DNA of 64,000 nt from an uncultured Candidatus Saccharibacteria bacterium. GTDB lineage: Bacteria > Patescibacteriota > Minisyncoccia > Phycocordibacterales > UBA2100. This document shows positions 22,282 through 51,522 of the stretch, in pieces; position 1 is the stretch's first letter; each line of letters opens with the position of its first letter. The DNA lies in NCBI GenBank assembly GCA_964594735.1, contig CAZQMS010000004.1:13241-77240 (forward strand). The letters run 5' to 3'. The notes under the pieces were generated by a model. That model was not told the origin of the DNA. It made no database searches and worked only from the letters and a program-made list of their open reading frames with translations. The position numbers were made by a program, and so were the translations under genes.

Positions 22282-23775
22282 ATGTCCGGCAAGATTGTCT
22301 GGGCGGTGTGCGCGGGGATTCTTCTTGGGGTCCTCTTTCGCTCGTTCGTCCCACTTTCGTGGCCATTAGCAGCGTTTCTCGCGCTCGCCGGCGTGTTCGT
22401 GCTCGGGTTCTCCACTCTCGACAGGCGGAGTGTCTACGCTCTCATCGGTATCGGCTGCATCGCTTTTGCGGGCGGAATGCTCCGGATGGACGCGGCGCGA
22501 CTCGTGCACGACCCGGCCTTGTACGAGAGGCTTGATAAGGATGTCGTTTTAATCGGGAAAGTCGTGGCGGAACCCGACGTGCGAGAGAAAAGCGTCAGGC
22601 TGCGCGTGCGTGCAAGCGATATGATTTATCATAACGCCACGACTTCTGTTGATGCCGGCGTGCTCGTCGTCGCACCACTTCACTCCGAAGTTGCATACGG
22701 TGACACTGTCCGCGCGGAGGGGAGACTACGGCTTCCCGAGGCGTTCGATACAGGTTCCGGACGGGTCTTCGACTACCCGATGTTCCTCGCGAAAGACGGC
22801 GTGCTCTACGAGCTCGCGTTTGCGGAAATCGAAGTGCTCGAAACTGGGGGCGGCAATGTGGTGAAGAAGGCTGCGCTCGCCATCAAACAGCTCTATCTCA
22901 CCGGTCTCAAGCGCACTTTGCCCGAGCCCGCTGCGGGACTCGCGGGTGGCATCACGGTGGGCGACAAGCGTTCTATAGGTGAAGAACTCTCGCAGGCGTT
23001 TATCAATGTCTCGCTCATCCACATCGTCGTCCTCTCCGGCTACAACATGACCGTGGTTATCAACGCGGCGGCGCGCCTCCTCACGTATGTTCCTCGAGTG
23101 CCGCGCCATGCACCCTTTGCCGTAAGCGGAATTATCGTCTTGCTCTTTGTGCTTATGACAGGTGGTGCGGCGAGTGCGACGCGTGCAGGTGCGATGGCGC
23201 TTATCGCGACGTACGCGCGGCTTTCAGGGCGCTCGTTTCTCGCGCTACGCGTGCTCGCAGCTGTCGCGGCGGCGATGGCACTGTGGAATCCATTTATCGT
23301 CGCGTTCGACCCCGGATTCCAGCTTTCCATACTCGCGACGGCAGGACTCATTCTCTTTACGCCACTCATAGCTCCGTACCTGCCGTTCATATCGGAGCGG
23401 TGGGGACTGCGTGAGATAGCCGCCTCCACAATCGGCACTCAAATTGCAGTACTCCCGCTTCTCCTGTATCAAAACGGACTCCTCAGCATCGCTGCTGTCC
23501 CCGCGAACTTACTCACGCTCATCATCGTCCCGTCGGCGATGCTTTTCTCTTTCTTCGCGTCGCTCGCGGGACTACTCCTCGGAAACTTCGGGACCATAGT
23601 GGCACTCCCGGCGCTTGCGCTGCTCTCCTACATCATCAAAGTTGCTGAAATTCTCTCTGCAATTCCGTATGCATCTGTCACCGTCCCCGCATTCGGCGTC
23701 TGGCTCATGGTTCTCATGTATGTATTGCTTGCCGTCGCGTACGCCTGGCTACAAAAGAAAACACCCCAGGGATGA
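22282..23775 (+). CDS. comEC: DNA internalization competence protein ComEC/Rec2, channel part (DUF4131 + Competence domain). No fused MBL domain.
   Basis: Polytopic membrane protein with the ComEC signature LIHIVVLSGYNM. Confidence 0.8.
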   Translation: MSGKIVWAVCAGILLGVLFRSFVPLSWPLAAFLALAGVFVLGFSTLDRRSVYALIGIGCIAFAGGMLRMDAARLVHDPALYERLDKDVVLIGKVVAEPDVREKSVRLRVRASDMIYHNATTSVDAGVLVVAPLHSEVAYGDTVRAEGRLRLPEAFDTGSGRVFDYPMFLAKDGVLYELAFAEIEVLETGGGNVVKKAALAIKQLYLTGLKRTLPEPAAGLAGGITVGDKRSIGEELSQAFINVSLIHIVVLSGYNMTVVINAAARLLTYVPRVPRHAPFAVSGIIVLLFVLMTGGAASATRAGAMALIATYARLSGRSFLALRVLAAVAAAMALWNPFIVAFDPGFQLSILATAGLILFTPLIAPYLPFISERWGLREIAASTIGTQIAVLPLLLYQNGLLSIAAVPANLLTLIIVPSAMLFSFFASLAGLLLGNFGTIVALPALALLSYIIKVAEILSAIPYASVTVPAFGVWLMVLMYVLLAVAYAWLQKKTPQG

Positions 23776-27649: not shown

Positions 27650-27721
27650 GGCTCATCCTTGCGCCCGCAGGGCATTAATAGTAGTATCTCGGCATTCCCC
27701 TCGGGGGATTTTTGATTGACA

Positions 27722-28138
27722 ATGGCTACGATAAACCAGCTCGCACGCAAAGGACGCAACCCGCGCGTGTACAAATCCAAGACCGGCGCGCTCGCGCGCG
27801 GTTTCAACACGCTCAAGAACCGCCCCTCTTTCTACCCGGCGCCCTTCAAGCGCGGTGTGTGCACTCGCGTCACGACCAAGACGCCTAGGAAGCCCAACTC
27901 CGCCATCCGCAAAATCGCCCGCGTCCGTCTTTCCAATGGTATGGAAATCACCGCCTACATCCCGGGCGAGGGACACAACCTCCAGGAACACTCGGTCGTT
28001 CTCGTGCGCGGTGGTCGCGTGAAAGACATCGGCATCCGTTACACCATCGTGCGCGGTAAGCTCGACGCTACCGGTGTGGAGAAGCGCCGCCGCGGCCGCT
28101 CTCGCTACGGCGCCAAGAAGCCCAAAGCTGCCAAGTAA
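27722..28138 (+). CDS. rpsL: 30S ribosomal protein S12
   Basis: Strongly conserved sequence. Confidence 0.9.
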
Positions 28139-28178: not shown

Positions 28179-28640
28179 ATGCGACGCCCTGTAAAAAATC
28201 GTAAGCAGCCGAATCCCGACGAAGTGTACGGGTCTCTCAAGGTCGCGAAGCTCATCAACTACGTGATGGAGCGCGGCAAAAAGGACACCGCCCGCAAAAT
28301 CGTCTACAAGGTCATGGAAGAGCTCAAGAAAGAGGGCGACCCGGTCGCAATCCTCGAGGAGGCGCTCGACAAGGCAGCTCCGTCGGTAGAAGTACGCTCA
28401 CGCCGCGTGGGAGGTGCCAACTACCAGGTGCCTCGCGAGGTGCGCCCCGAGCGCCGTCTTGCACTTGGCCTGCGCTGGATAGTGGAGGCAGCGGAAGGCA
28501 CGAAGGGCAAGCCGATGGCAGACTCGCTTCTCAAAGAAATCCAGGCAGCATACAAGGGCGAGGGCAGCGCGGTCACCAAGAAGGAAACAACGCACCGCAT
28601 GGCAGAGGCCAACAAGGCTTTTGCCCATTTTGCCTGGTAA
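28179..28640 (+). CDS. rpsG: 30S ribosomal protein S7
   Basis: Strongly conserved sequence. The last ~30 nt are lower in GC than the duplicated copy at 29164-29197. Confidence 0.9.
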   Translation: MRRPVKNRKQPNPDEVYGSLKVAKLINYVMERGKKDTARKIVYKVMEELKKEGDPVAILEEALDKAAPSVEVRSRRVGGANYQVPREVRPERRLALGLRWIVEAAEGTKGKPMADSLLKEIQAAYKGEGSAVTKKETTHRMAEANKAFAHFAW

Positions 28641-29163: not shown

Positions 29164-29197
29164 GGCCAACAAGGCATTCGCGCACTTCGCCTGGTAG
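29164..29197 (+). other. Duplicated 3' end of rpsG (GCC AAC AAG GCA TTC GCG CAC TTC GCC TGG TAG encodes ANKAFAHFAW*)
   Basis: Encodes the same ten residues as the end of rpsG using GC-richer synonymous codons. Confidence 0.75.
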
Positions 29198-29218: not shown

Positions 29219-29255
29219 AAAACGGCTCAACACGTGTTGAGCCGTTTTGATTTGG
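29219..29255. terminator. Intrinsic terminator AAAACGGCTCAACACGTGTTGAGCCGTTTTGATTT
   Basis: Perfect hairpin followed by a T-run. Confidence 0.7.
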
Positions 29256-29544: not shown

Positions 29545-30090
29545 TCAGGGGCGAATGAACGCCGTGAGGTCTGAGATTTCACAGACACGGATGTTGTCGC
29601 ATTCCACGTAGCCGTCCGCGACCGCGAACGACCGTTTCGCTGAGACGAGGATCTTCTTCACGTCGATGCGATACTGCACGAGCGATGCACTCGGCAAAAT
29701 CTCACCGAGAAATTTGCTCGGCCCTGCGCCCGTAGCGCGACCCTTGCCTCGAGCGCCGGACCAGCCGGCGAAGAAGCCGGTGAGTTGCCAGAGCGCGTCT
29801 TGCTGCAAACACCCCGGCATCACGGGGTCATCTTTGAAGTGGCAAGCGAAGAACCAGGCGTCGCGGCGGACATCCATCTCCGCGATTGCGTAGCCCTTTT
29901 CGAACGTGCCGCCCTCGTCGCGAATGTCGAGAATGCGGTCAAGCATGCGCATGGGTGAGATGGGCAGTCGAGGCAGATTGCCCCACATGCCCCGGCCGCA
30001 GTACTCGAGTTCGTCGAGGCTGTACGATTCTTTCCTCTGGAACCCCGAGGTGCCCGGCACCCTACCTGAATCATCGAGAAGCATGGTCAT
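29545..30090 (-). CDS. FabA-like 3-hydroxyacyl-ACP dehydratase/isomerase (hot-dog fold)
   Basis: High similarity to E. coli FabA around the active site (DAWFFACHFKDDPVMPGCLQQDALWQL). Confidence 0.75.
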   Translation of the reverse strand: MTMLLDDSGRVPGTSGFQRKESYSLDELEYCGRGMWGNLPRLPISPMRMLDRILDIRDEGGTFEKGYAIAEMDVRRDAWFFACHFKDDPVMPGCLQQDALWQLTGFFAGWSGARGKGRATGAGPSKFLGEILPSASLVQYRIDVKKILVSAKRSFAVADGYVECDNIRVCEISDLTAFIRP

Positions 30091-30205
30091 GGCTTCATCT
30101 CCCTTCGGCCATCCGTTACGGAGCCGTTCTGTCGACGTTATACCGATATGATAGAGGTGTGTCGAGCGCATTTTGCGGCCTGCTGTTTACACGTACTATG
30201 TCCGC

Positions 30206-30871: not shown

Positions 30872-30906
30872 CATCCCCTTCTATTCGACGGCCGTCTAAT
30901 AGAGAG

Positions 30907-31455
30907 CTATAGTAGTCGGAACACTTTCCTTAATCGTTCCTCGGACTCAATTTTCTCGAGCACGCCGTACAATATGTATTTCGAGAGGGCCGATTCGCGC
31001 CGTATAAGTTGTATAAGTTCCTCACAATCGTGTGGAAAGATCCAGACACTCTGCTGTAGCTGCACAAAGCCGGCACGCTTCAATATTCCGCGCACTTGGT
31101 TGCGCAATACTCGATATTTCTCGGGGATGTCGAATACAACGATGCGCCACCGGTGGTCCCATCGGGTATCGTTTCGCAAAAGGGCTGCCGTGGAGCGAAT
31201 TGCGCCACCGAGTATATCCGCACCCCTGTCGGTAAGAGAAAGTTTTTGCCCGCGTTCAGTAATGAATTTCAGGTCCTTAAGCCGCTCAATGGCCAACTTC
31301 TTGCGATATCGAAACTGTGCGTGTTCTCGCGCCCGCTTGAACATCAGACGATTAGAGCGAGCAGATAGAAGGAACCCGTACAGCAAATCGCCAGCCGACA
31401 GATCTTCGAGGACGCTTCGTTCTATAGCGCCGAGCCGATGTCTTCGTTTTGCCAT
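30907..31455 (-). CDS. PaaX-family-like transcriptional regulator (wHTH + PaaX_C-like)
   Basis: WRIVVFDIPEKYRVLRNQVRGILKRAGFVQLQQSVWIFP. Confidence 0.5.
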   Translation of the reverse strand: MAKRRHRLGAIERSVLEDLSAGDLLYGFLLSARSNRLMFKRAREHAQFRYRKKLAIERLKDLKFITERGQKLSLTDRGADILGGAIRSTAALLRNDTRWDHRWRIVVFDIPEKYRVLRNQVRGILKRAGFVQLQQSVWIFPHDCEELIQLIRRESALSKYILYGVLEKIESEERLRKVFRLL

Positions 31456-31815
31456 ATATCCATATATTATACGGCCGTCGATTAGAGGGATGTATGAGAT
31501 GTGGATTCTGAAGTATGTGAAGTACGTGCAGGGTGGCCTTTCGAGTGGTAAGAAGCGGGCTTCAGCGGAGTCTCATAGGGGCACGTCCATGATGCGCCTA
31601 TGTCACTCTTCTCGATTTTCGTCATATTCCTGCTCGTCGCTGTCTTCGGCACGCTCATCGCCGTGGCGATAGATGAAGAGTTTTGGCTCTAGTGAGGCTT
31701 GTATTTTCGCCCCCAATCCGTTACATTGTGCACACCTGCCTGCGCAGGCAGGCGCCCAAAAGAGGTTTAGCGGGGCTCCGCCAGCCGGCGGATATTTTTT
31801 TAAACAATACATACT

Positions 31816-33957
31816 ATGAGCAGAGATTACCCCCTCGAGAAGGTCCGCAACTTCGGCATCGTCGCACACGTCGACGCGGGCAAGACGACCACGTCGGAGC
31901 GCATCCTCTACTACACCGGCGAGAGCCACAAAATAGGTGAAGTGCACGAGGGCAACACGGTTACCGACTGGATGGAACAGGAGCGTGAGCGCGGTATCAC
32001 CATCACCGCCGCGGCCATCACGTGTTTCTGGAATCCCTCGTACATGGGTGCCGATACATCTTTCAAGCATCGCTTCAACATCATCGACACGCCGGGTCAC
32101 ATCGACTTCACGTCGGAAGTGAAGCGCTCAATGCGCGTACTCGACGGTGCAGTCGTCGTATTTGACGGTGTCGCGGGCGTGGAGCCTCAGTCGGAGACCA
32201 ACTGGCGCTACGCGGAGGAAGCCGAGGTGCCCAGAATCTGCTACATCAACAAGCTCGACCGCACCGGCGCTTCATTTGAAAAGTCGTATGCTTCGATTCT
32301 CGACCGCCTCTCGACGAAAGCAGTCCGTCTCCAGATACCGATCGGCCTCGAAGACCAGTTCGAAGCGGTCATCGATGTTCTCGAGATGAAAGCGTATCGC
32401 TTCGAGGGTGAGATGGGCAAGAACGTCGTACCATTCGAGATTCCGGATCAGTACAAGGCCGATGCGGAGAAGTATCACAACGAAATCGTCGAGCGCATCG
32501 TCGAGACTGACGACGCACTTATGGCCGAGTTCCTCGACGGCAAGAAGCCCTCTCTTGAGGTGCTCAAAAAGGCGCTTCGCCAGGCCGTCGTCACCAACAA
32601 GATTTTCCCCGTCCTCACCGGCAGCAGTCTCAAGAACAAGGGTGTGCAGCGCGTGCTCGATGCGGTCGTCGACTACCTCCCGTCTCCGCTCGACCTGCCC
32701 CAGGCTCGCGGTATCAACCCCGACACTGGCGCAGAAGAGACACGCCCAGCCGACGACTCGGCGCCCTTTGCCGCGCTCGCATTCAAGCTCCAGGTGGACC
32801 CATTCGTCGGTGCGCTGACATTCTTCCGCGTCTACTCGGGCACCATCAATACGGGTGACACTGTCTACAACTCTGCCAACAACAAAAAGGAGCGCATCGG
32901 CCGTATGGTGCGCCTCCAGGCAGACAAGCGCGAGGAAATCAAATCTGTCCATGCGGGCGAAATCGCTGCCGTGGTGGGCATGAAAGAGGTGAAAATCGGC
33001 CACACGCTCTGTGTCGCGGATCACCCGATTATTCTCGAGAGCATCGTCTTTCCTGAGCCAGTGGTTTCGATGCGTGTCGAGCCGAAGACCAAGGCCGACC
33101 AGGAGAAAATGGGTATCGCACTCTCCAAGCTCTCCGACGAAGACCCGACGTTCCGCGTCCACTCCGACCCTGAGACGATGGAGACGATTATCTCGGGCAT
33201 GGGTGAGCTGCACCTCGACATCATCGTCGACCGCATGAAGCGCGAATTTGCCGTGGAGGCGACGACGGGCAAGCCGCAGGTTGCGTACCGCGAGACTATC
33301 CAGGGCACCGCGGATGTCGAGTACAAACACATCAAGCAGACAGGCGGTCGCGGTCAGTACGGCCACGTGAAAATCAAGGTCAAGCCGCTCGAACCGATTG
33401 TCGAAGGCGAGAAGGTCAAGAACAACGTCGACCGCGAAGACCACTTCGAATTCATCAACAACATCAAGGGCGGCGTCATCCCGCAGGAGTACATTCAGCC
33501 GGTCAAAAAAGGTCTCAAGGAGGGTATGGAGCGCGGTGTCCTCGCCGGCTTCCCGATGGTCGATGTGTCTGTCGACCTCTACGACGGCAGCTACCACGAC
33601 GTCGACTCATCCGAAATCGCATTCAAACTCGCTGCGCTCAATGCGTTTCAAGACGCGGTACAGAAGGCGAAGCCCGTCATTCTCGAACCGATTATGAAGC
33701 TCGAAGTCGTCATGCCAGAGAAATTCATGGGCGACGTGACCGGCATGATCAACTCGAAGCGCGGCACCATCGAAGCGATGGGTGAGCGCGGCCAGGCACG
33801 CGTCGTCACTGCCAAAGTCCCGCTCTCAGAAATGTTCGGCTTCACCACGCAGCTTCGCTCGCTCACCGAAGGTCGCGGTGTCCCGAACCTCGAATTCAGT
33901 CACTACGCGGTCGTGCCGCGCAACGTCCAGGAGGAAATCGTTTCGTCAAGAAAATAG
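31816..33957 (+). CDS. fusA: Elongation factor G
   Basis: Strongly conserved sequence over its full length. Confidence 0.95.
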
Positions 33958-34085
33958 ACACGTCTGCCACAAGGGCACTTCCGCCGAGATTTTCCAGCAG
34001 GCCCAACTGCTAGGAAAATCCAAGTGCAGTCGCTGCTGCGAGCTGCCATTTCACTAACGTCGAGTACGACGAAGTGAAATTGGTC

Positions 34086-34112
34086 GCAGGACGAAATCGT
34101 TGCGTCCAGAAA
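34086..34112 (+). other. Duplicated 3' end of fusA (GAC GAA ATC GTT GCG TCC AGA AAG TAA encodes DEIVASRK*)
   Basis: Compare the fusA end EEIVSSRK*. About 130 nt downstream of the fusA stop. GC-richer codons. Confidence 0.6.
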
Positions 34113-34145
34113 GTAAAAGAAACCCGGGCTTAGCCCGGGTTTCTT
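34113..34145. terminator. Bidirectional terminator AAGAAACCCGGGCTTAGCCCGGGTTTCTTTTAT
   Basis: Perfect hairpin with flanking A and T runs. Confidence 0.7.
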
Positions 34146-34478
34146 TTATGCGATGATGTCGGTGCCGAAGATCTCCACGTATTGCTCGTCGGTTAGATAC
34201 TCTGCGAGCGTGAGCTTCACACCCACCAAGAGTCCATACACTTCATGTGGGTCTGAATGTTCCAATTCCTTTGCCATGAGGTAGTCAATATATCCTGCCA
34301 CCTGCGCTCGCAGAGTCTCGAGCCCTGCCCGCTTGGCTTCATTGGGTACGCCTTTTCCGCCGCGACCTTCTATCGCCACGTCGAGTGCGCGCACTGCCGC
34401 CTCGACATCTTTTTTTACCTGAGCCTTTCCTTCGAGCTCTTCGCGGTTGCGTATGGGGATGATTTTCTCGAAGGACAT
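34146..34478 (-). CDS. Hypothetical protein (110 aa)
   Basis: Plausible ORF with consistent codon usage. Confidence 0.45.
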   Translation of the reverse strand: MSFEKIIPIRNREELEGKAQVKKDVEAAVRALDVAIEGRGGKGVPNEAKRAGLETLRAQVAGYIDYLMAKELEHSDPHEVYGLLVGVKLTLAEYLTDEQYVEIFGTDIIA

Positions 34479-36633: not shown

Positions 36634-37443
36634 ATGAGAGATTGGCTTAATGGATTCTCAGAGCAGCACCTTGGCACGCTTACCAATGTGCTCGCGCTCC
36701 TGGTCGCGGCTCTTGCGATTTTCACTGGATTTAGCTTGGCTCGCGGCAACGTCGACATCCCATGCTGGAACGTGAGCACGACGCGAGAAGAGGGCGGTTC
36801 GTGCACGGGCGGTTCCTGGACGACATGGTCGACCACCGCTGAAGACGGCACGACGGTGACGGAGCGCCGTGTGTACACCGGAGTTCTCAACACCGTGAGC
36901 GCCGTGATTACCTACAATACCTGCGGTGGTATCTCGAACAATTCCGCGGCCAACATAACGTCGCAGAGCTCCGCATGTCAGATAGAAGAGACGCGTACCA
37001 GGTCCGGCACCGGCTCTGGTGGGAGCGGCGGTTCGGGCTCTGGGAGCGGTTTTGAAATCCTCTCGTACAACACACAGCAGACCGTGGGCGACATCATCAG
37101 CACGATGAATGTGCAGGGCACTGTGAGTGACTTCAATGATTTCGTCGAGGCACGACTCGCCACATCCAGCATTCGCGCCATACCGATGCTCGTGCGCAGC
37201 GGGGAGACGACGCGTATCGTGTGGGATTCTGAATACGTCAGGCTCTGTCGCGTGACCGGAACCAACGGCGACAGCTGGCCGCTACCGGTCGGTGGACAAT
37301 TGCCGGTAGCGCTCTCAGGCGACGAAACTTCGGCTCCTATCGTGCAGCAGACCACCTACACGCTCGCGTGCACGACGGCACTCGGCAACATAATTGGCGG
37401 TGACGTGATCGTAAACATCATCCCGACGTTCAACGAACAATAG
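36634..37443 (+). CDS. Secreted protein with the shared C-terminal ~90-aa domain (ends IIPTFNEQ)
   Basis: C-terminal similarity to 37845..38870 and 56884..58092. Confidence 0.55.
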   Translation: MRDWLNGFSEQHLGTLTNVLALLVAALAIFTGFSLARGNVDIPCWNVSTTREEGGSCTGGSWTTWSTTAEDGTTVTERRVYTGVLNTVSAVITYNTCGGISNNSAANITSQSSACQIEETRTRSGTGSGGSGGSGSGSGFEILSYNTQQTVGDIISTMNVQGTVSDFNDFVEARLATSSIRAIPMLVRSGETTRIVWDSEYVRLCRVTGTNGDSWPLPVGGQLPVALSGDETSAPIVQQTTYTLACTTALGNIIGGDVIVNIIPTFNEQ

Positions 37444-37844: not shown

Positions 37845-38870
37845 ATGCGTTCTACTAAGCAGCTTACGGTCGTCGGCATGCTCGTGGGCGCACTCACGAT
37901 TGGCAGCATGTTCGCTCTCGCCCCATCGGCAGAATCCCAGGCGAGCGGCGGCACCGTAGCGGGTTATGCGTGGAGCGATACCATTGGCTGGATTTCGCTC
38001 AATTGCAGCAATCACAGCTCGTGCGGGACGGTGAGCTACGGACTGCAGGTCGACGCCGACGGCGTGCTTTCCGGAAAAGCGTGGAGCGAAAACATCGGGT
38101 GGGTGAGCGCTGATATTACCGATCTTCTCGGATGTCCCGACGGTGGCTGCTCCGCTCGATTCGAGGGCGATGAACTTACGGGCTGGCTGAAAGCTCTCTC
38201 TGGCGGTTCGTCGCAAAGCGGAGGCTGGGACGGATTCATCTCCCTCTCGGGCTCGAGTCCAAGCTACGGCCCCACCCTTTCGTCCGGCACTTTTTCCGGG
38301 TACGCATGGGGAGACACCAATGTCGGCTGGATCGATTTCTCTTTTGCCACGAGCGATTTCGTACCCGATGTGTGTCTCAACCTGCCTGGCGTGCAGCCTG
38401 CTGCGCCAAGTGGATACTACGAAGAAGATGGGCAGTGCCTCGTACAGTGCAATGTCGCGCACAGTTGCTTGGGTCAGACGATTCAGAAGACCGAAGCGAA
38501 CTGCGCTGTCATCAACGTGACGACATGCGTGGCGCCGCTCTTTTGTGTCGCGGGCTCTGCGGTGTGCCTCTCGCCGAGCCCCGTCTTCAACCCGGGTGCA
38601 GGTCTCTCCGGACACCTGCAGGCGCGCCCGCTCATTCTCCCAACTGGCGCTAGGACGCGCTTGCATTGGGATGTGGGCAATGTTGAGAGTTGCTCAGTGA
38701 CAGGAAGCAACGGCGATTCGTGGTCGGGTGTGGCATCGGGCGCGTCGGGACAGGAGACAAGCCCTATCCTGCAAGTCACGACATTTACTCTTACGTGCGT
38801 GAAGTTCGACGAAGCGACTTTCTCAGAAAGTGTGTCGGTGACCGTGTTGCCAGTCTTTAGGGAGATATAA
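37845..38870 (+). CDS. Secreted protein with the shared C-terminal domain (ends VLPVFREI)
   Basis: Signal peptide. Cys-rich middle region. Conserved C-terminus. Confidence 0.55.
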   Translation: MRSTKQLTVVGMLVGALTIGSMFALAPSAESQASGGTVAGYAWSDTIGWISLNCSNHSSCGTVSYGLQVDADGVLSGKAWSENIGWVSADITDLLGCPDGGCSARFEGDELTGWLKALSGGSSQSGGWDGFISLSGSSPSYGPTLSSGTFSGYAWGDTNVGWIDFSFATSDFVPDVCLNLPGVQPAAPSGYYEEDGQCLVQCNVAHSCLGQTIQKTEANCAVINVTTCVAPLFCVAGSAVCLSPSPVFNPGAGLSGHLQARPLILPTGARTRLHWDVGNVESCSVTGSNGDSWSGVASGASGQETSPILQVTTFTLTCVKFDEATFSESVSVTVLPVFREI

Positions 38871-40412: not shown

Positions 40413-41612
<1,200 letters not shown>

Positions 41613-41646
41613 CACCGATGCTTCGCTCCGCCAGCTGGCGGACCGC

Positions 41647-41697
41647 GAAGGCGGCAAGACAGTTGGAGCGGGCGTCGTGACCAAAATCACCGTCTAA
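41647..41697 (+). other. Duplicated 3' end of tuf (encodes [16 protein letters not shown]). It is preceded by the palindrome TCCGCCAGCTGGCGGACC at ~41627-41643.
   Basis: Compare the tuf end [18 protein letters not shown]-richer synonymous codons. Confidence 0.75.
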
Positions 41698-41756
41698 GCC
41701 AACGTTTCCCGTAGCCTCCCGCTGCACAGAAAACCCGCCAGCAATGGCGGGTTTTC

Positions 41757-42392
41757 TTATTCCGATTGAGAACGGAGAACGCCTTTTACAACTCCACAAA
41801 TCCGGAAGTTTTCACCTGTGGTAACCTCGATATCTTCGTATTTTTCCTCTGGATTAGTCGACTGAAGCAAGATGTGTTGGCGTTTCTCGTTGAAGAACAA
41901 TTTCTTCACCCGCTTTATCATTGGCATGTCTTCGTAAACCACGACGGCAATTTTCCCACTATCAACATCTGACTGAATATGTGCAAGTACAAGGTCACCT
42001 TCGTGAATCAACGGCTCCATCGATTGACCCTTGGCTTTTATTAAGAAGAAATGTGATGGGTGGGCGATACCGAACATCTTCGTGGCCATTGGGACCCGGT
42101 CGATAATGTCGTCTTCAGCAAAGGTTCCGTTGGGGCCACACTGAGCAGTGGCGCGATAAAGGTTTATGTAAGCGATGTCCGAAACCGGAGTCTTTAGTAT
42201 CCGATACTCTTTCGGCGCAACCTCGCGTACGAGCCCTTTCTTTTGGAGCTGATCTAAGTGGTGGGCGACTATCTGAGCCCGGTCGTCGATACCTAGAGCC
42301 GTTCCGATGTCACGTAAGGAAAGTTCACGTAGGTCGCCCTTTCGCTTTCGGATAAGATTAAGCAGTGCGTTCTGAGTAGGGTGGAGCCTCAT
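41757..42392 (-). CDS. lexA: LexA-like S24 peptidase repressor
   Basis: wHTH N-domain. S24 motifs (KGQSMEPLIHEGDLV, IKRVKK). Confidence 0.7.
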   Translation of the reverse strand: MRLHPTQNALLNLIRKRKGDLRELSLRDIGTALGIDDRAQIVAHHLDQLQKKGLVREVAPKEYRILKTPVSDIAYINLYRATAQCGPNGTFAEDDIIDRVPMATKMFGIAHPSHFFLIKAKGQSMEPLIHEGDLVLAHIQSDVDSGKIAVVVYEDMPMIKRVKKLFFNEKRQHILLQSTNPEEKYEDIEVTTGENFRICGVVKGVLRSQSE

Positions 42393-42779
42393 ATCATTAT
42401 TTTGGCTTAAAACCGACCCTATCACAACTTGCGTGTGTGGACAATGAAGCGTCGTCCAGGAAAACTTGACAAAAGAAGCGACCTCGATTATACTTACTGC
42501 AACACGACCCAACGCCCCTACGAGAGTTAGTGCGCTCGTGCCGTGATTATCAGACTAAGTCAAACACTCCATGAGTAAGGAATCCAAGACCTCTTTGAGG
42601 GGTCGAGATGCTCGAACAGGTGAGTTCACCACAGTCGAGAAAGCTCGCAATAACCCCGCCACTCACGTTGTCGAACGCGTCCCGAAGCCGGGACACGGCG
42701 ACACGGACTAACGTCATGCGATGAGCAGCGGCGACGCATGTCGCCGCTGCTTTGAGGATTAATATTATTGTAAAGAAAC

Positions 42780-43361
42780 ATGGCAAGAAAGTGTTTTATC
42801 TCCCTCAAAACGGAGGACATGCTTTATAAAGAAGCCATCCAGAAACTGGGTGTCGATATGGTCGATAAATCGCTCGATAATCCTATCGAGTCCGATGACG
42901 AGGATTACATCATGCGCCGCATACGCGACGAGAACCTTTCAGACTCTACGGTCACGATTTTTCTCATTGGTCAACGGAGTGCCGAGGCGCTCGGCGCACA
43001 CGAACAGAGGTTCATAAAGCGTGAACTCCAGGCCTCACTTTATGACGGAGAGAACAATCCGAGAAGTGGCATTCTTGGCGTGGTGCTCCCTTCGATGACA
43101 CAGGCGGTATTTCGCGGCTCAGGTGGTTGCAGTGGTTGCAGAGAGCACATTGGTATTGTTCACGCGAATGACAGTACCATGATTAAGGAGTTCCATAAGA
43201 ATTACTATACGAAAGACGACCAATGTCATCATGGGGAAGACGAGCGCTACTGTGTCCTTGTTTCTTGGGACGATTTCATCGTGGAACCAGAAAAATACAT
43301 CGAACAAGCGTATGCTAAAAGAGAACATCCCATCTCGCAGAGCGTCAGAGTTCGACCATAA
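42780..43361 (+). CDS. TIR-like domain protein (ThsB / DUF1863-like)
   Basis: Matches the ThsB-like pattern: N-terminal ARKCFISLKTED, then VTIFLIGQRSAE..RFIKRELQAS...GILGVVLP. Confidence 0.65.
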   Translation: MARKCFISLKTEDMLYKEAIQKLGVDMVDKSLDNPIESDDEDYIMRRIRDENLSDSTVTIFLIGQRSAEALGAHEQRFIKRELQASLYDGENNPRSGILGVVLPSMTQAVFRGSGGCSGCREHIGIVHANDSTMIKEFHKNYYTKDDQCHHGEDERYCVLVSWDDFIVEPEKYIEQAYAKREHPISQSVRVRP

Positions 43362-43362
43362 T

Positions 43363-43818
43363 ATGTCTGAAACACCTGGGATCGCAAATAATGAACCGAA
43401 TTCGGGCTATGGTCGCCTTGAGGAACAGATTCGCTGGTATGATCAAAAGTCCGTAAGTGCGCAGGCTTGGTACAAGAATACAAAATTTATTGAGATGGTT
43501 TGCGCCGTTGCGTTACCCCTGGCCGCCGTTTATGAATTCAATATCGTATCCGTTGGACTCGGCGCTATCATAGTGCTGCTTGAGAGCTTGCAGCACTTGA
43601 ATCAATGGTCTCAAAACTGGGTCATGTATCGTTCGACCTGCGAGGCTCTTCGTCACGAGAAATACGCATACATGGGACGCACGGGTATGTATGACGTGAA
43701 AAATGATGAAGAAGCAAAGAAGATTCTTGTTTCGCAGGTGGAAACACTTGTCTCAACCGAGCACTCAAAGTGGAATTCACGACAAGAGTACGAAACGCAT
43801 CGAGGGAATCGGGGCTAA
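43363..43818 (+). CDS. SLATT-like (DUF4231) 2-TM effector domain protein, translationally coupled to the TIR-like gene
   Basis: LEEQIRWYDQKSVSAQAWYKNTKFIEMVCAVALPLAAV followed by a second TM segment. ATG 1 nt after the upstream TAA. Confidence 0.6.
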   Translation: MSETPGIANNEPNSGYGRLEEQIRWYDQKSVSAQAWYKNTKFIEMVCAVALPLAAVYEFNIVSVGLGAIIVLLESLQHLNQWSQNWVMYRSTCEALRHEKYAYMGRTGMYDVKNDEEAKKILVSQVETLVSTEHSKWNSRQEYETHRGNRG

Positions 43819-43820
43819 GC

Positions 43821-43881
43821 GCAAAAAACGGCTTAAAAACCGCAAGAAATCAAAAGACCGCGGCGGTGGTATTGTGTGCCT
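43821..43881. repeat. Island repeat copy 1 (short form: AAAAAACGGCTTAAAAACC-GCAAGAAATCAAAAGACCGCGG + GGTGGTATTGT 5'UTR module)
   Basis: Seen in sequence. Confidence 0.8.
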
Positions 43882-44388
43882 ATGTCAGTCATTACGTACG
43901 TTGATGAAAACGATAACGTGATAGGGCAGGGGGAGCGCACTGATGCTCTAGCGAAAGGAATTATTCACCGCATCTCTCGCGTTTTCGTATTCAATTCTCA
44001 GGGGGAGATATTGATACAGAAGCGTTCCGCGAACATATCGCTTCCGAACTTATGGGACCAGTCGGCCGCCGGCCACGTAGACCCGGGCGAGGATTATATG
44101 TCTGCCGCCGAGCGTGAACTTCGCGAAGAAACAGGAATTCAGAACGTCCCACTGCGCGAACTCGTCAAATACTATGCGGAAGAAACGGATCAAGGTGTGA
44201 CGGCGAAACGATTCAGTACGCTGTACGTCGGGACATACGATGGCGATGTACATACCACCCCGGAAGAAGTCGCGGAGTTGCGCTGGATAACGCCTGACGA
44301 GCTTGCAGCATGGATGAGAGAAAAACCCCAGGATTTCACGCAAGGATTCATAAAGTGCTTTGAGCAATACCGCCAAAAAACGGCTTAA
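43882..44388 (+). CDS. Nudix hydrolase
   Basis: Nudix box GHVDPGEDYMSAAERELREETGI. The stop codon lies inside the next repeat copy (CGGCTTAA). Confidence 0.8.
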   Translation: MSVITYVDENDNVIGQGERTDALAKGIIHRISRVFVFNSQGEILIQKRSANISLPNLWDQSAAGHVDPGEDYMSAAERELREETGIQNVPLRELVKYYAEETDQGVTAKRFSTLYVGTYDGDVHTTPEEVAELRWITPDELAAWMREKPQDFTQGFIKCFEQYRQKTA

Positions 44389-44412
44389 AAACCCCAAGAA
44401 ATCAAAACGCTG
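44375..44412. repeat. Island repeat copy 2 (short form)
   Basis: CAAAAAACGGCTTAAAAACCCCAAGAAATCAAAACGC. Confidence 0.75.
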
Positions 44413-44522
44413 CACCGACGACACCCCTATATCCTTAAGGATGTGAGGATGTCGCGGCGGGTTTGACCTGCTCTGCATACGAATGTAGAGTCCCGCGCAG
44501 GAAGCAGCCCACGGAGGAGCAC

Positions 44523-44948
44523 ATGCTCGACATCAGGATCCCGTATGCCGTAGATCGCGCCATCGCGGTCGTTCGGAGTATCAGTGACGGTACGCTCAAC
44601 TACCCGCATCTCAAGCGACCCGTATGGAACGGACTGCGCATAACGCGGGTGACGCTGGTCGAAGTCGGCAGCAATTGGCAGCACGGCGGAGCCCAGCGCA
44701 ATGGCACCTGGGAGTTTCGAGCCACTGCCCAGGTCTTCGGCTCTCGCAACTACAACAATGAGGAGCTGCTCGCAGAAGTGCACCTCAAAGGCTGCACGAC
44801 GAAGCACGAGGAAGCCGCGATCACCGCCGATCATTCGAGCTGGCGACCGACGTTTGCCACGTACCTCGGCGTTGAAGGCGCAGGCGAAGGTCAATGGAAA
44901 GAGGGGTGGATCTCGGTGTCGAACCTCAACGGCACTCCGCTCCTCTGA
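44523..44948 (+). CDS. Hypothetical protein
   Basis: GGAGGAG ribosome-binding site before the ATG at 44523. Confidence 0.45.
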   Translation: MLDIRIPYAVDRAIAVVRSISDGTLNYPHLKRPVWNGLRITRVTLVEVGSNWQHGGAQRNGTWEFRATAQVFGSRNYNNEELLAEVHLKGCTTKHEEAAITADHSSWRPTFATYLGVEGAGEGQWKEGWISVSNLNGTPLL

Positions 44949-45005
44949 ACCAGCGAGAATATCTCGAAGCGGCCGCGAACTTCGCGGCCGTTATTGCTTT
45001 TCCAT

Positions 45006-45086
45006 CCAAAAAACGGCTTAATCCGCCAGCTGGCGGACCCCAAGAAATCAAAAGACCGCGGCGCGCCTGAGCGCCGCGGTCCTTTC
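45006..45086. repeat. Island repeat copy 3 (full form: AAAAAACGGCTTAA + TCCGCCAGCTGGCGGACC + CCAAGAAATCAAAAG + GC-hairpin terminator)
   Basis: Preceded by a separate terminator at 44970-45000. Confidence 0.85.
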
Positions 45087-45107
45087 TGCTTGGAACAGCC
45101 GGCTCGA

Positions 45108-46580
45108 TTACTGAACGTAAATCGAAACCGGGGGCTTGAACTCCGAGCACACACGGTGCGCATCATGCACGGGATGGTTGAGGAACCACTGCTCGAAGTC
45201 GTGGGGCATCTGCGCGTCGTCGACCTTCGGCATCACGTCGCCGATGACCATCTGACGGAGCACCGGACCCCACTTCCGTCCGCCGAGGCGGGCGGTCACG
45301 GAGCAGTTGTCGATCAGGTAGTCGATACCACGAACGTGCATGTACGGATTGAGCGAATCCGTGGCCTCGATGATCGTCTCGTTCACGATCTCGGACCAGC
45401 AGTGCCCGTTTTCGCGAAGCACTTCCACCTGCGCGAGCATCATCCCGATGTACGAACCAGAGGTGCGTGCATCGAGCGGGACTTCGACATTGCCCTTGCG
45501 GGCGGTCTCGCCGGTGCGCCACATCTGCGTACCGTCGACCTTGGTCCAGCCGAAACGCTCGATGGCGTTCGTTTGGTCGATGACGCTGCCGATCTCGCGT
45601 CCACTCTTCACCTCGTTGTAGATCTCGGTGACGATCGGAAGCGAGTGCCTGTAGGACAGGTAGACCGTCCGCAGGAACTCGGCGCGATTCGCGACAGGGA
45701 TCGCCTCGAGAATGCCGAGCAGGCCCTTCTCTGAGATGATCTTCGAGATCGGGCCGGTGATCGCCATCGCGCTACGCGCGAAGGCCTCGTGCGGAAGCAT
45801 CTGCTTGCCGATGTAGTAGTCGTTCATCGCTTCCGCCGTCGCCCAGACGCCGCCGAGCAGAATGTTGCGTTCGCCCGAGATGTCGCTGAGGTATTCCTTC
45901 TCCAGCGTCGTCTCGAACACGTACGGCGACCCGATGGCAATCGCCCAGCCCAGCGCGATGTTGCGGGCGCGGCCCGTCACGTCCTGCTGGATTGCGTAGC
46001 TCGCGTTGATGCCGGCACCGTTGACGCTCTTGCCCTGCACATACAGCGCACGAACGGACGGACCCATGCCCTTCGGGCACACAGCGACGACGTTGATGTC
46101 GTCGCGGAACTTCATGCCGACAATCTTCATGTAGCCGAGCACGAAGCCGTGCGAGAAGCCGAGCGTAGCGCCGGCCTTCATCGACCGCTGAATGCTGTCG
46201 ACGAGCTTGGACTGCGCCGCATCGTTGATGAGCGCGATGACGAGGTCGGAAGCTGACGCCACGTCGAACATGTCGCCGGCAGTGCCGTCATCCACGGTAA
46301 AGCCGCATTCCGCAGCTTTCGCGAATGACGAGCTGTTCTTGCGAAGTCCGACGACGACGCGGATACCGCGTCCGGCGAGCGATTCACGCAGATTCTGCGC
46401 CTGAGCGGGTCCTTGCGAACTCCAGCCCAGCACCGCTATCTGCGTGACGCCCTCGAAAGCCTGCGGCAACAGGTCGAACCTGTCACGGCCGCCGACGACC
46501 ACGTCTTCCGTCGTGCCGGCGAGCTCGATGCGTCTCACCCCGAACACGTTGTCTTGAGTCTGGGTCATGCTTGTCTCCAC
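45108..46580 (-). CDS. Ketol-acid reductoisomerase, class II (IlvC-like)
   Basis: GWSSQGPAQAQNL, LGFSHGF and VAVCPKGMG motifs. Length about 490 aa. Confidence 0.75.
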   Translation of the reverse strand: METSMTQTQDNVFGVRRIELAGTTEDVVVGGRDRFDLLPQAFEGVTQIAVLGWSSQGPAQAQNLRESLAGRGIRVVVGLRKNSSSFAKAAECGFTVDDGTAGDMFDVASASDLVIALINDAAQSKLVDSIQRSMKAGATLGFSHGFVLGYMKIVGMKFRDDINVVAVCPKGMGPSVRALYVQGKSVNGAGINASYAIQQDVTGRARNIALGWAIAIGSPYVFETTLEKEYLSDISGERNILLGGVWATAEAMNDYYIGKQMLPHEAFARSAMAITGPISKIISEKGLLGILEAIPVANRAEFLRTVYLSYRHSLPIVTEIYNEVKSGREIGSVIDQTNAIERFGWTKVDGTQMWRTGETARKGNVEVPLDARTSGSYIGMMLAQVEVLRENGHCWSEIVNETIIEATDSLNPYMHVRGIDYLIDNCSVTARLGGRKWGPVLRQMVIGDVMPKVDDAQMPHDFEQWFLNHPVHDAHRVCSEFKPPVSIYVQ

Positions 46581-46624
46581 CCATGTGTGTTGGCCCCAAT
46601 GCCAACCTGGCGAAACCCTACACT

Positions 46625-46730
46625 AGGGGCGCGGAAATCAAAAGTCCGAAAAAGGGCTTAAAAATTCATCCTGAGCACGTCGAAGGACCCCAAGAATTCA
46701 GGGTCGTAAAAATCAAAGACCGCGGCGATT
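46625..46730. repeat. Island repeat copy 4 (degenerate, with a different insert in the palindrome slot)
   Basis: AAAAAGGGCTTAAAAA...CCCCAAGAATTC...AAAATCAAAGACCGCGG. Confidence 0.6.
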
Positions 46731-46780
46731 GACCGGGAGGGGGAGCAAATGTAAGGTTTCGCAGGAAAGGGAGGTGGCGA

Positions 46781-47332
46781 ATGATTACCACCTGGGATTT
46801 GCGACACATCACCAAGCCGGAAATGCTGCGGATACTGAAGAACGTTCCGGGCTTCACCCTTGTCGAACAGGTGCCGTACGAAAAGCGCGAGATCGATCTC
46901 TCGGGCTTTGAGTGCGAGCATCCCAATCAGGCGCGCATGGTCCGACGTGAGCTCGAAGAGGCGACAACGGCATGTGAGGAGTTTCTGTCCGGCATCATCC
47001 TCACCGACTCGTTCAAGAACCACATTGAGCGGCGAATCTGGCGTCGTTCGATGGCCGACTACTTCGGCGGTGCCTTCGTTGACCTGTATCGTTCAAACAA
47101 GCTGCGGGTCAATACATTGTGCTGGGTCGATATCACATTCCAGACGATTGGTCAGGGGTTGAGGATATACAAGGTCTCCTCTGACCGTGCGGCAGCGATC
47201 CGTCAGCTTGTTGCGAATATGCCGAGCCTTCGTCAATACGAGGATTCCCTCGCCATCAATCAAAAGCTCGGGTTCGTCGCGGAGTACGACAAGGTCTGCC
47301 GTTCCTTCCTCGACATCGTTGCCAAACGATGA
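46781..47332 (+). CDS. Hypothetical protein
   Basis: GGGAGGTGG ribosome-binding site. Confidence 0.45.
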   Translation: MITTWDLRHITKPEMLRILKNVPGFTLVEQVPYEKREIDLSGFECEHPNQARMVRRELEEATTACEEFLSGIILTDSFKNHIERRIWRRSMADYFGGAFVDLYRSNKLRVNTLCWVDITFQTIGQGLRIYKVSSDRAAAIRQLVANMPSLRQYEDSLAINQKLGFVAEYDKVCRSFLDIVAKR

Positions 47333-47339
47333 ACACGAA

Positions 47340-47455
47340 ATACGAAACGGCCGCGCGAATGCGGCCGTTTTGCTTTGTATACAAAAAACGGCTTAATCCG
47401 CCAGCTGGCGGACCCCAAGAAATCAAAACCCCGCGGAATTGCCGCGGGGTTTCTT
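47340..47455. repeat. Island repeat copy 5 (terminator AACGGCCGCGCGAATGCGGCCGTTTTGCTTT + full form + terminator). Nearly identical to copy 10.
   Basis: About 90 nt are ~95% identical to 50166-50258. Confidence 0.85.
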
Positions 47456-47473
47456 CGTGCAATGCGTTTGCGG

Positions 47474-47956
47474 TCAGACTGTCTCCAGGTCCCACAGAAT
47501 CGAACGAATGTTGCCGGGGCTTCCGGTCAACAGGTAGTCGGCGACGGTGTAGGTTGGCAGCGGCTGGTAGCTCGTCAGCCATTTGCGCCACGCGGCCGAC
47601 GAATCGCCGAGCCGCTTTGTCAGCGCATAGTTCATTTGGGCCCAGAGGCAGACGCGGTCCCACATCACGGCGTTCTGCTTGTCGTAGAGCTCCACGTGAA
47701 TCTGCTTGCTAAGTTCGCCAGCACTTCCGATCGTCCAGCCCATCCAGTGCATGAAGCCGAACGCTTCGCCCCGAATCGGTTCGAAATCCCAAATCTTGGT
47801 GACAGCTTCGATCGCATCGTTGATCAGGTTGCGCTCGACCCAATCGAAGTTATACGCCGGTGTCGGCGTCGCTTTCGCGAACTGTGGTGCGCCCGCGACC
47901 ATGAGGCACGCGGCGGTTGAAAGCAAAAAGTGTCGGCGAATCACTTTCATCGTCAT
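47474..47956 (-). CDS. Secreted hypothetical protein (Tat-like RRHFLLS signal)
   Basis: Signal peptide at MTMKVIRRHFLLSTAACLMVAGA. Confidence 0.45.
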   Translation of the reverse strand: MTMKVIRRHFLLSTAACLMVAGAPQFAKATPTPAYNFDWVERNLINDAIEAVTKIWDFEPIRGEAFGFMHWMGWTIGSAGELSKQIHVELYDKQNAVMWDRVCLWAQMNYALTKRLGDSSAAWRKWLTSYQPLPTYTVADYLLTGSPGNIRSILWDLETV

Positions 47957-48030
47957 CCCTCCATCCGGCGGTACGGTTCGACCGTAGCGCTCTGTGCGCC
48001 ACACTACACGAACAAGAACTCAAATCAAAC

Positions 48031-48106
48031 GCTCAAAAAACGGCTTAATCCGCCAGCTGGCGGACCCCAAGAAATCAAAAGACCGCGGTGGTGGTATTGT
48101 ATTGTC
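48031..48106. repeat. Island repeat copy 6 (full form + GGTGGTATTGTATTGTC 5'UTR module ending at the ATG)
   Basis: Seen in sequence. Confidence 0.85.
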
Positions 48107-48607
48107 ATGAACGAGTCACTGCGTCCTGCGCCGAGAGAATCCGTAGATTTGTCGGAAGAAAAGCAGGAGCTACTGAAGCTGGAAGCGGAAGAGCGTTTCG
48201 TTTTTCATGGAACAGCAGCAGATGTCGATGCGCTCGAACCGAGGCAGGCTGTCGACAACGTGCGCGGTCCGGACGGCAACCCTGCGGTTTTTGCTTCTTC
48301 AAAGGCGGACTATGCGATTTTTATGGCCATATTCAACAAAGAGAACTGTCCGACAGGGACTAAAACAACAAGCGGCTTCACCATTGATGATGCGGGCACA
48401 ATAGAAATGAAATTTAGCGCTTCGAAAAGTACCTTGGAAACTCTACGTCCAGCAGCAGCGGGTTGGGTGTACGTGTTCGATAAGAGTAACTTTGCTGTGC
48501 GCCAGCCCGGGTCTGTCGAGTTCGTAAGTGAGAAACAGGTGCATCCACTGCGCAGGATTCGTGTCACGAAGCGTGATCTACCAGAAAACATACAAGCGAC
48601 GGACTAA
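48107..48607 (+). CDS. Hypothetical protein
   Basis: ATG directly after the conserved UTR module. Confidence 0.45.
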   Translation: MNESLRPAPRESVDLSEEKQELLKLEAEERFVFHGTAADVDALEPRQAVDNVRGPDGNPAVFASSKADYAIFMAIFNKENCPTGTKTTSGFTIDDAGTIEMKFSASKSTLETLRPAAAGWVYVFDKSNFAVRQPGSVEFVSEKQVHPLRRIRVTKRDLPENIQATD

Positions 48608-48649
48608 AATTTTAGGTGAGGGAAAGGTGTCAGGTACCATTCTTCAGCA

Positions 48650-48696
48650 GACGGCTTTAAAACCCCAAGAATTCTGGGCGATGGTATTGTTAAGGT
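48650..48696. repeat. Island repeat copy 7 (short form + GATGGTATTGTTAAGGT UTR module)
   Basis: Seen in sequence. Confidence 0.7.
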
Positions 48697-49029: not shown

Positions 49030-49030
49030 C

Positions 49031-49115
49031 TAAAAAAACGGCTTAATCCGCCAGCTGGCGGACCCCAAGAAATCAAAAGGCCGCGGCGCGCTACTCTGCG
49101 CCGCGGTCTTTTTCT
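49031..49115. repeat. Island repeat copy 8 (full form + terminator hairpin)
   Basis: Seen in sequence. Confidence 0.85.
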
Positions 49116-51520: not shown

Positions 51521-51522
51521 TA

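Follow-up and report, generated by a model that had tools for sequence, protein, structure and literature searches.

Duplicated end of fusA in a broken str operon

We analyzed a 64-kb stretch of contig CAZQMS010000004.1 (assembly GCA_964594735.1), in which the gene for elongation factor G (EF-G), fusA, is followed by a second copy of its own 3′ end. This whole stretch is called the window below, and its positions serve as coordinates. The window has a GC content of ~58% and contains both the str and the S10 ribosomal operons, with rpsL, rpsG, fusA, tuf and rpsJ in this order, followed by rplC, rplD, rplW, rplB and rpsS (Table 1). The operon is broken after nearly every gene, with gaps of 3.2 kb (rpsG-fusA), 6.4 kb (fusA-tuf), 14 kb (tuf-rpsJ) and 2.9 kb (rpsJ-rplC). 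The fusA open reading frame (ORF) is intact, and in database searches its product was 100% identical to P0001 and 83-97% identical to Kaiserbacteria EF-Gs with the full EF-G Pfam set. The nearest EF-G proteins all came from metagenome-assembled Kaiserbacteria, Paceibacteria or Minisyncoccota genomes, and the window is assigned to a Kaiserbacteria-like lineage of Patescibacteria. Loci of relatives that were fetched and compared with the window are designated L plus a number; the closest genome found was GCA_964654205 (L227), with 97.5% identity in the EF-G protein and 94% identity in tuf DNA.

The last 30 nt of fusA, CAGGAGGAAATCGTTTCGTCAAGAAAATAG, encode QEEIVSSRK and a stop codon, and a downstream copy in direct orientation, CAGGACGAAATCGTTGCGTCCAGAAAGTAA, encodes QDEIVASRK and a stop codon. 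The two copies are identical at 25/30 positions and lie 159 nt apart start to start, with 129 nt between them, in agreement with a first-pass annotation that had placed a fragment encoding DEIVASRK about 130 nt after the fusA stop. The identity stops at the Q codon with none upstream, and four of the five differences fall at third codon positions, the changes being synonymous or conservative. As a chance control, the last 30 nt of all 385 stop-to-stop ORFs in the window were compared with 3 kb of flanking sequence. The upstream maximum was 20/30, and the downstream values were 25/30 for fusA, 24/30 for rpsG and 21/30 for tuf (38/54 across the full tuf repeat). The fusA repeat is far beyond chance. 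The first-pass annotation had also considered that the similarity might be limited to the short peptide and might not rise above background; the former was found, with ~9 codons plus the stop, and the latter was not, with 25/30 compared with at most 20/30 in the control.

An in-frame TGA lies 3 codons 5′ of the downstream copy, so this copy cannot be translated as part of fusA. No function is evident for the relic itself. The downstream copy runs into a terminator with a perfect 14-bp stem (AAAGAAACCCGGGC/GCCCGGGTTTCTTT), an A-tract before it and a T-tract after it, and the convergent minus-strand ORF ends inside it, in agreement with the perfect bidirectional terminator of the first-pass annotation. 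The spacer between the copies forms four stable hairpins, to which no function is assignable, and spacer and terminator together fold with a z score of -7.3 relative to shuffled sequences. No Rfam family reached the gathering threshold, the sub-threshold matches at 34027-34210 being terminator look-alikes, and neither a tRNA or tmRNA gene nor a third copy of the fusA tail was found in the 64-kb window.

Table 1 Genes and duplicated gene ends in the window and in related loci. Positions for relatives are those of the respective locus.
Locus	Feature	Position	Strand	Remarks
Window	rpsL	27716-28138		First in gene order
Window	rpsG	28179-28640		After rpsL
Window	rpsG copy 1, in-frame tail (ANKAFAHFAW-stop), assigned as imported	28607-28640	+	5 synonymous AT-shifted differences; matches in distant lineages
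Window	Cargo ORF between rpsG tails, 168 aa	28650-29156	+	Signal-peptide-like N-terminus, weak PKD hit
Window	rpsG copy 2, assigned as displaced original tail	29164-29197	+	30/30 to L082 functional tail; then terminator 29219-29248
Window	fusA (EF-G), 713 aa	31816-33957	+	Intact; from ORF list
Window	fusA copy 1, in-frame tail, putatively imported	33928-33957	+	GC3, rare peptide, less like relatives than copy 2
Window	fusA spacer part S2′, with hairpin 33988-34020	33958-34019	+	Homology to relic-following sequence in L178 and L227; fold
Window	fusA spacer part S1, with hairpins 34026-34046 and 34048-34080	34020-34086	+	Homology to L178 sequence before relic tail c2
Window	fusA copy 2, putative displaced former tail, non-coding relic	34087-34116	+	25/30 to copy 1
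Window	Putative original fusA intrinsic terminator, bidirectional	34116-34146		Perfect 14-bp stem; common with convergent ORF 34146-34478 (minus)
Window	tuf	40413-41612		After fusA
Window	tuf copy 1, in-frame tail, assigned as imported	41559-41612	+	GC3 0.18; third-position differences from L227 begin at repeat boundary
Window	tuf spacer, 31 nt	41613-41643	+	Palindrome TCCGCCAGCTGGCGGA at 41627-41642
Window	tuf copy 2, assigned as displaced original tail	41644-41697	+	48/54 to single L227 tuf tail; then terminator 41730-41755
Window	rpsJ	55988-56383		After tuf; then rplC, rplD, rplW, rplB, rpsS
L005	fusA scar			65-nt spacer; in-frame copy AT-rich; relic GC-rich, with terminator
L026	fusA scar			71-nt spacer
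L087	fusA scar			65-nt spacer
L011	fusA scar			OY969413.1, whole-chromosome record; perfect 18-nt repeat around MNT/HEPN toxin-antitoxin pair
L025	fusA scar			Secreted hydrolase, its ORF continuing into the relic
L002	fusA scar			3.2-kb insert with 827-aa secreted protein; repeat >95 nt
L178	fusA scar	12113-14317		Three tails
L180, L181	fusA scar			80-nt relic after ParE/Phd and 829-aa gene
L227	fusA scar			56-nt spacer, then relic QDEIVANRK-stop
L228	fusA scar	14390-14515		Relic >120 nt after 635-aa gene
L081	rpsG scar	5826-7893		Three tails; perfect 33-nt repeat around 237-aa ORF
L081	rpsG scar, outer part			Degenerate 67-nt relic after reverse-strand gene, then terminator
L082, L083	rpsG scar			Without the 237-aa cassette (empty site); older relic common with L081
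L180, L181, L182	rpsG scar			Same scar in three independent assemblies; 18-nt spacer
L224	rpsG scar			12-nt repeat after 71-aa ORF
L156	tuf scar			14-nt spacer

Scars at rpsG and tuf

The same pattern was found at rpsG and tuf, as the first-pass annotation had proposed. The two rpsG copies encode the same peptide, ANKAFAHFAW, at a spacing of 557 nt and enclose a 168-aa cargo ORF with a GC content of 47-53% compared with ~58% in the surroundings; no homologue of the cargo protein other than itself was found. The two tuf copies are identical at 38/54 positions and are spaced 85 nt apart, the peptide of the second copy ending in TV before the stop codon.

The 16-nt palindrome TCCGCCAGCTGGCGGA in the tuf spacer lies directly 5′ of the downstream tail. 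Exact copies also occur at 45022, 47397, 48049 and 49047, and copies with 1-2 mismatches occur at 31777, 50224 and 52129. It is present in some sites of the repeat array located after tuf (described below) and missing from otherwise identical ones. Together with a T-run it is also found just upstream of fusA, where it is kept in L005 and L084. This sequence may be a small mobile palindrome or a reused terminator module.

Downstream copies resemble the resident gene ends

We compared the copies of each gene end with each other and with relatives. Differences between the copies fell at third codon positions in 5/5 cases for rpsG, 3/4 for fusA and 14/15 for tuf. As the differences are almost only of this kind, both copies descend from functional genes rather than from drift in place. 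The GC content at third codon positions (GC3) of the in-frame copy, the downstream copy and the gene body was 0.60, 0.90 and 0.73 for rpsG, 0.44, 0.67 and 0.77 for fusA, and 0.18, 0.71 and 0.81 for tuf, respectively, which agrees with the earlier remark that the downstream fusA fragment has GC-richer codons. In all three genes the GC3 strings switch sharply at the repeat.

The tuf gene of L227 has a single tail, followed by the same terminator sequence as in the window, and this tail matches the downstream copy of the window at 48/54 positions and the in-frame copy at 37/54. Differences between the window and L227 are sparse in the tuf body (4.6%) and then affect every third base from within ~4 nt of the repeat boundary. 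The insertion is clean, as the duplication boundary marks both the start of the foreign tract and the return to resident sequence. Similarly, the downstream rpsG copy is identical to the functional tail of L082 (30/30), and the in-frame copy (25/30) is best matched by the distant, lower-GC lineages L106, L093 and L044, whose RpsG proteins are 54-65% identical. These data firmly indicate that the downstream copies at tuf and rpsG are the resident originals and that the in-frame tails were imported.

For fusA, three 91%-identical EF-Gs end in QDEIVASRK like the downstream copy, and QEEIVSSRK, encoded by the in-frame tail, occurs once among 120 homologues. In the loci of these three EF-Gs a single fusA tail is followed by a terminator. 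The fusA site is empty in L081-L084 and L001, and in relatives without the duplication a terminator hairpin comes right after the stop codon. At the DNA level the downstream copy matches every relative at 23-26/30 positions and the in-frame copy at 20-22/30; against L227 the values are 25/30 and 23/30. No long foreign patch was detectable in fusA upstream of the repeat. With moderate firmness, the comparisons suggest that the downstream copy is the old fusA tail and that the in-frame copy was imported. A 159-bp segment, comprising the replacement tail and the 129-nt hairpin-rich spacer, would have been inserted in register at Q705, so that fusA would now end on an imported tail and its old tail and own terminator (34087-34146) would lie downstream. 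The first-pass annotation had read all three genes as carrying a short foreign 3′ end and retaining the displaced original; this reading was borne out by the match of the downstream copies to relatives, the fusA case being weaker.

The term foreign here denotes another lineage, not a distant phylum or a recognisable mobile element. Indeed, S2′, the 62 nt after the in-frame fusA tail, is homologous to the sequence following relic tails in L178 (z 5.7) and L227 (z 3.8), and no homology was found to the sequence after tails in 9 other relatives. Since S2′ resembles sequence after older relic tails in these two relatives, the imported fusA piece probably came from within the same clade.

Recurrence of gene-end scars in relatives

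All fetched loci were scanned for duplicated gene tails, and scars were found at fusA, rpsG and tuf in the relatives listed in Table 1. In the two stacked loci, rpsG in L081 and fusA in L178, the oldest and most degenerate copy adjoins the terminator, and these loci record successive insertions at one gene end. Empty sites were found for fusA in L081-L084 and L001, for tuf in L227, and for the rpsG cassette of L081 in L082. The relic in L228 was annotated at source as a 41-aa protein with an EFG_C domain.

In a targeted survey, duplicates were found only at rpsG, fusA and tuf (156, 115 and 66 tails, respectively), and none at rpsL (144 tails), rpsJ (61), rplC (48) and rplB (47). Repeat lengths were 18-123 nt for fusA, 12-67 nt for rpsG and 39-54 nt for tuf, an 18-nt case in L183 being doubtful, and insert sizes ranged from 14 nt to about 3.3 kb. 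The cargo consists of toxin-antitoxin modules and secreted or cell-wall-binding proteins, with ~9/11 genes co-directional with the host gene. No tail duplicate was found more than 4 kb away in 165 loci with 10-kb flanks. A metagenome scan with RpsG, which served as a wider survey, yielded relatives of at most 66% identity among the matches listed. The process is thus a recurrent one in this Kaiserbacteria-like clade, and rpsG, fusA and tuf are the genes at whose 3′ border new DNA is placed.

Junctions and search for a recombinase or donor

The left junctions are in frame and in register, and the right junctions have 0-5 nt in common; no common motif was seen at the junctions. The copies in the window are 70-85% identical, with runs of identity of at most ~8-9 nt, and the repeats are identical or nearly so in L081, L011, L178 (c1/c3) and L002. 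S1, the part of the fusA spacer next to the downstream copy, is homologous over 62-67 nt to the sequence before relic tail c2 of L178 (z 6.3). The order in L178 is S1, tail and S2, contiguously, and the order in the window is tail and S2′, and then S1 and tail. Between the window relic and that of L178, serine and arginine codons have undergone two-step synonymous changes, so S1 is not simply part of an old common relic.

No recombinase was seen in any examined insert or in the 64-kb window, many of the ORFs in both having no Pfam hit or being read by eye only. From their translations, a ComEC-like ORF (22282-23775) and PilB, PilC and pseudopilin ORFs (7585-14907) were recognized in the window, and relatives' orthologues of the uptake genes carry Pfam Competence/DUF4131 domains. 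Neither the fusA spacer hairpin nor the repeat-site core had an exact match in the viral contigs scanned. The 39 viral matches to the 15-mer junction AAATTGGTCGCAGGA were all due to chance, with no tail following, and 13 viral-contig matches that might have represented a phage attachment site with a tuf fragment were ordinary tuf genes with no downstream duplicate. Descent of S1 or the tuf spacer from degenerate gene pieces was marginal (p 0.02-0.08) and is not claimed. Nothing relevant was found in the literature on integrons of the candidate phyla radiation or on integration at tuf ends.

Possible origin of the scars

The rpsG, fusA and tuf genes are among the most conserved bacterial genes. 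Each repeat is an insertion scar at a recombination hot spot, the 3′ border of a very conserved gene. For the manner of joining, which is inferred, we favour border-of-homology or insertion-duplication recombination with imported DNA and give it about an even chance. Imported DNA of another lineage would pair in register with the conserved gene end. The ComEC and type IV pilus genes of the genome make its uptake plausible. The far end would be joined out of register, since there is no homology past the stop codon, either by an illegitimate or microhomology join or by a single crossover with a circularised fragment. Such an event would add DNA rather than replace it, the incoming DNA giving the gene a new tail and older tails piling up downstream. 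Only events that leave the essential ORF intact would survive, and thus every scar would start with a complete replacement tail. What would last is a slot for further insertions, with a highly expressed gene on one side and the terminator of that gene on the other. The three conserved targets, the variable boundaries, the inserts down to 14 nt and the lack of a visible enzyme favour such a homology-guided, element-independent process, and the confinement of duplicates to rpsG, fusA and tuf fits with it. When a circular molecule carried a gene-end fragment, most integrants were reported to be gene-end duplications formed by a single crossover (PMC3240628).

The scars share with such insertion-duplication events, and with homology-facilitated illegitimate recombination (HFIR), added DNA that is bounded by a gene-end duplicate of variable length, with one homologous junction and the other without homology. 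Both would be expected in naturally transformable cells and need no element-encoded enzyme. HFIR has reportedly been described in more than one study. Several observations weigh against this explanation. Classic HFIR needs a long upstream donor anchor, and no upstream donor tract is visible in the window, where the tuf donor tract begins ~4 nt from the repeat boundary. The copies in the window (25/30 for fusA, 38/54 for tuf) are too divergent for a RecA crossover between them. Boundaries recur in two pairs of apparently independent events, at -33 of rpsG in both the window and L081 with unrelated cargo, and at -30 of fusA in both the window and L178 with the same junction, AAATTGGTCG followed by CAGGA. 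S1 and S2 are kept in several genomes though differently arranged, which resembles the arms of a site-specific attachment (att) site. In addition, no donor was found when all fetched loci were searched by blastn and tblastn with the inserts at fusA, tuf and rpsG.

Integrative elements are known to insert into the 3′ ends of tRNA, tmRNA and protein genes and to restore the gene with their own copy of its end, leaving attL and attR; they reportedly prefer certain sublocations within tRNA and tmRNA genes. A serious alternative, though in our view a less probable one, is that integrase-mediated elements with targets at the 3′ ends of rpsG, fusA and tuf, and with the replacement tail in their attP, left the repeats as attL/attR scars. 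Short inserts would then be interior-deleted or non-autonomous mini-elements mobilised in trans, with S1 and S2 as the P and P′ arms. The resemblance is considerable: a direct repeat of the gene 3′ end flanks the insert, with the gene-proximal copy derived from the element and the displaced original on the far side; the insert was added cleanly and in register, and foreign sequence starts where the repeat does; relatives have empty sites; and tandem relics, with three tails each in L081 and L178, recall arrays from repeated integration. The recurring rpsG and fusA boundaries despite different cargo also accord with it, as do the attP-like order in L178, the attL/attR-like order in the window and the AT-richer imported tails in all three window cases. 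However, no integrase is visible in or beside the inserts of the window or relatives, though many ORFs are unannotated. Three unrelated, adjacent targets would require three specificities, the boundaries range over 12-123 nt, and some inserts extend just 14-18 nt past the tail, which leaves no room for arm sites. Within the 10-kb flanks, all duplicates lie at 4 kb or less, and the viral-contig scans gave no attP-like fragment.

Casposons reportedly integrate at the 3′ end of the archaeal EF-2 gene. They resemble the scars in that the 3′ end of an EF-G orthologue is targeted and the target sequence is duplicated, and differ in that the scars have neither Cas1 nor terminal inverted repeats and that casposon duplications are identical and about 14-15 bp long. 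The scars belong to a known kind, gene-end duplication through insertional recombination. What is unusual is their occurrence at three adjacent str-operon genes, with stacked relics across a Patescibacteria clade, no visible recombinase and conserved flanks, and these conserved flanking sequences hint at an unrecognised site-specific activity.

The repeat might also have arisen by local tandem duplication with divergence in place, or might be a functional RNA (a 3′ untranslated region structure or an attenuator) that resembles the tail by chance. The strong fold of spacer and terminator and the fusA spacing of 159 nt, a multiple of 3, would suit this explanation, but it is largely refuted and we regard it as very improbable. 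The differences between the copies are nearly all synonymous though the downstream copy is non-coding, and it is this copy, not the in-frame one, that resembles relatives. The serine and arginine codons of the window and L178 relics differ by two-step synonymous changes, and the spacer is unrelated to the sequence 3′ of the downstream copy. Neither the rpsG spacing (557 nt) nor the tuf spacing (85 nt) is divisible by 3. No Rfam family matched, and the TGA halts read-through before the downstream copy.

A metagenome assembly chimera, with two strain variants of the gene end strung in series, is conceivable insofar as the source genome was assembled from a metagenome and the EF-G protein of the window occurs on one contig only, but we give it hardly any credence. 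Identity between the spacer end and the gene upstream of the repeat is at most 5-8 nt, below k-mer length. Three separate sites on one contig are affected, and the same architecture occurs in many independent assemblies made with different assemblers in different projects, including the whole-chromosome record L011, with an identical rpsG scar in the three assemblies of L180, L181 and L182.

Three known mechanisms were rejected. For a diversity-generating retroelement, the fusA mismatches (G/C, T/G, A/C, A/G and G/A) are third-position changes that keep the peptide and are not adenine-specific, and no reverse-transcriptase ORF was seen. A target duplication by a transposon or miniature inverted-repeat element does not suit copies with 5/30 synonymous differences and spacer ends that are not inverted repeats. 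An integron is likewise rejected, as there is no integrase and neither the tails nor the sites at 43.8-54.5 kb contain attC-like imperfect palindromes.

Neighbouring genes

In the variable segment after rpsG, a minus-strand gene (29545-30171) encodes a FabA-like dehydratase domain (Pfam E value 5e-38) and is missing at the corresponding position in L227. To our knowledge, this lineage is generally thought to lack fatty-acid synthesis, so a FabA-like gene is unexpected. Between ung and fusA, a minus-strand gene for a PaaX-middle/Cas2-like protein (30907-31455) is flanked by 35-nt inverted repeats with a palindromic ACGGCCGT core (region 30877-31494). Its orthologue in L227 (region 8396-9034) sits elsewhere, in the gap between rpsG and ung, and is flanked by different inverted repeats of 28 nt.

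Large secreted proteins encoded at 36634-37443, 37845-38870 and 56884-58092, and at 18001-21791 of L081, have a common C-terminal motif, ending in VNIIPTFNEQ, VTVLPVFREI and VNIVPVFRET in the window and VNILPVFNEQ in L081. This C-terminus may be a clade-specific sorting or anchoring signal. A tandem 25/30 repeat, CTTGAGAGT.CGTATCTCATGGGGTAGAC, lies at 3206-3290 on the minus strand, in intergenic DNA upstream of a trigger-factor-like gene (assigned by eye). Its first unit folds as a hairpin, and it is not a gene end, though it scored in the tail scan.

Repeat-site array after tuf

Right after the tuf terminator, the stretch 41757-44400 contains a LexA/S24-type repressor gene on the minus strand and then a 43-50% GC stretch with TIR and SLATT defence-type genes, resembling island-like DNA that begins past the displaced tuf tail. 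Most of the 14-kb gap between tuf and rpsJ is filled by an array of at least 11 conserved repeat sites of 70-100 nt on the plus strand (43821-54460). Each site consists of AAAAACGGCTTAA, then AA or TCCGCCAGCTGGCGG, then ACCCCAAGAAATCAAAAGACCGCGG and a terminator hairpin. The units between the sites are mostly single genes unrelated to each other, encoding a ThsB-like TIR protein, a SLATT/DUF4231 protein, a Nudix-like protein (by eye), a cupin-like protein and the products of several family-less ORFs, and the array also holds a reverse-oriented ketol-acid reductoisomerase gene. The last site (54392-54460) lies just before an ABC-F gene. The array is cassette-like, with no integrase or attC-like structure found. 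A link between the array motif CAAAAAACGGCTTAA (QKTA and stop) and the C-terminus of rplD (AQKTA and stop) was dropped, as it covers 4-5 residues and the flanks are dissimilar.

The tail scars and the repeat-site array might be two stages of one clade-specific Patescibacteria gene-capture platform, which we consider unlikely. The 3′ ends of the most conserved and most transcribed genes would act as portable attachment sites. Cassettes would bring a synonymous replacement tail and insert between gene and terminator, so that the latest arrival is closest to the gene. A recombination activity that acts in trans or is still unrecognised would drive them. The scars are like integron arrays in that most of the cargo consists of single, promoter-proximal genes in the direction of the host gene, stacked behind a strongly transcribed point with the latest cassette closest to it. 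In contrast to integron arrays, no IntI or attI was found, the repeats are not attC-type imperfect hairpins with R″/R′ boxes, and the target is duplicated, which does not happen upon integron insertion. Such a platform, if true, would be an integron-like system without the integron integrase.

Implications for gene acquisition in Patescibacteria

Little is understood of how Patescibacteria, with their tiny genomes, obtain accessory genes. The scars show that in one clade foreign DNA has entered time and again at the 3′ borders of rpsG, fusA and tuf. Each event leaves a datable relic of the earlier gene end, and because older relics are stacked downstream, the order of insertion is recorded. 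In practice, such relics can be mis-called as small ORFs, as the 41-aa EFG_C protein of L228 illustrates. If the process is purely homology-driven, universally conserved genes would be landing pads through which diverged lineages exchange genes with no need of mobile-element machinery; should a recombinase take part, the scars would define a new family of gene-end-targeting elements in an uncultivated phylum.

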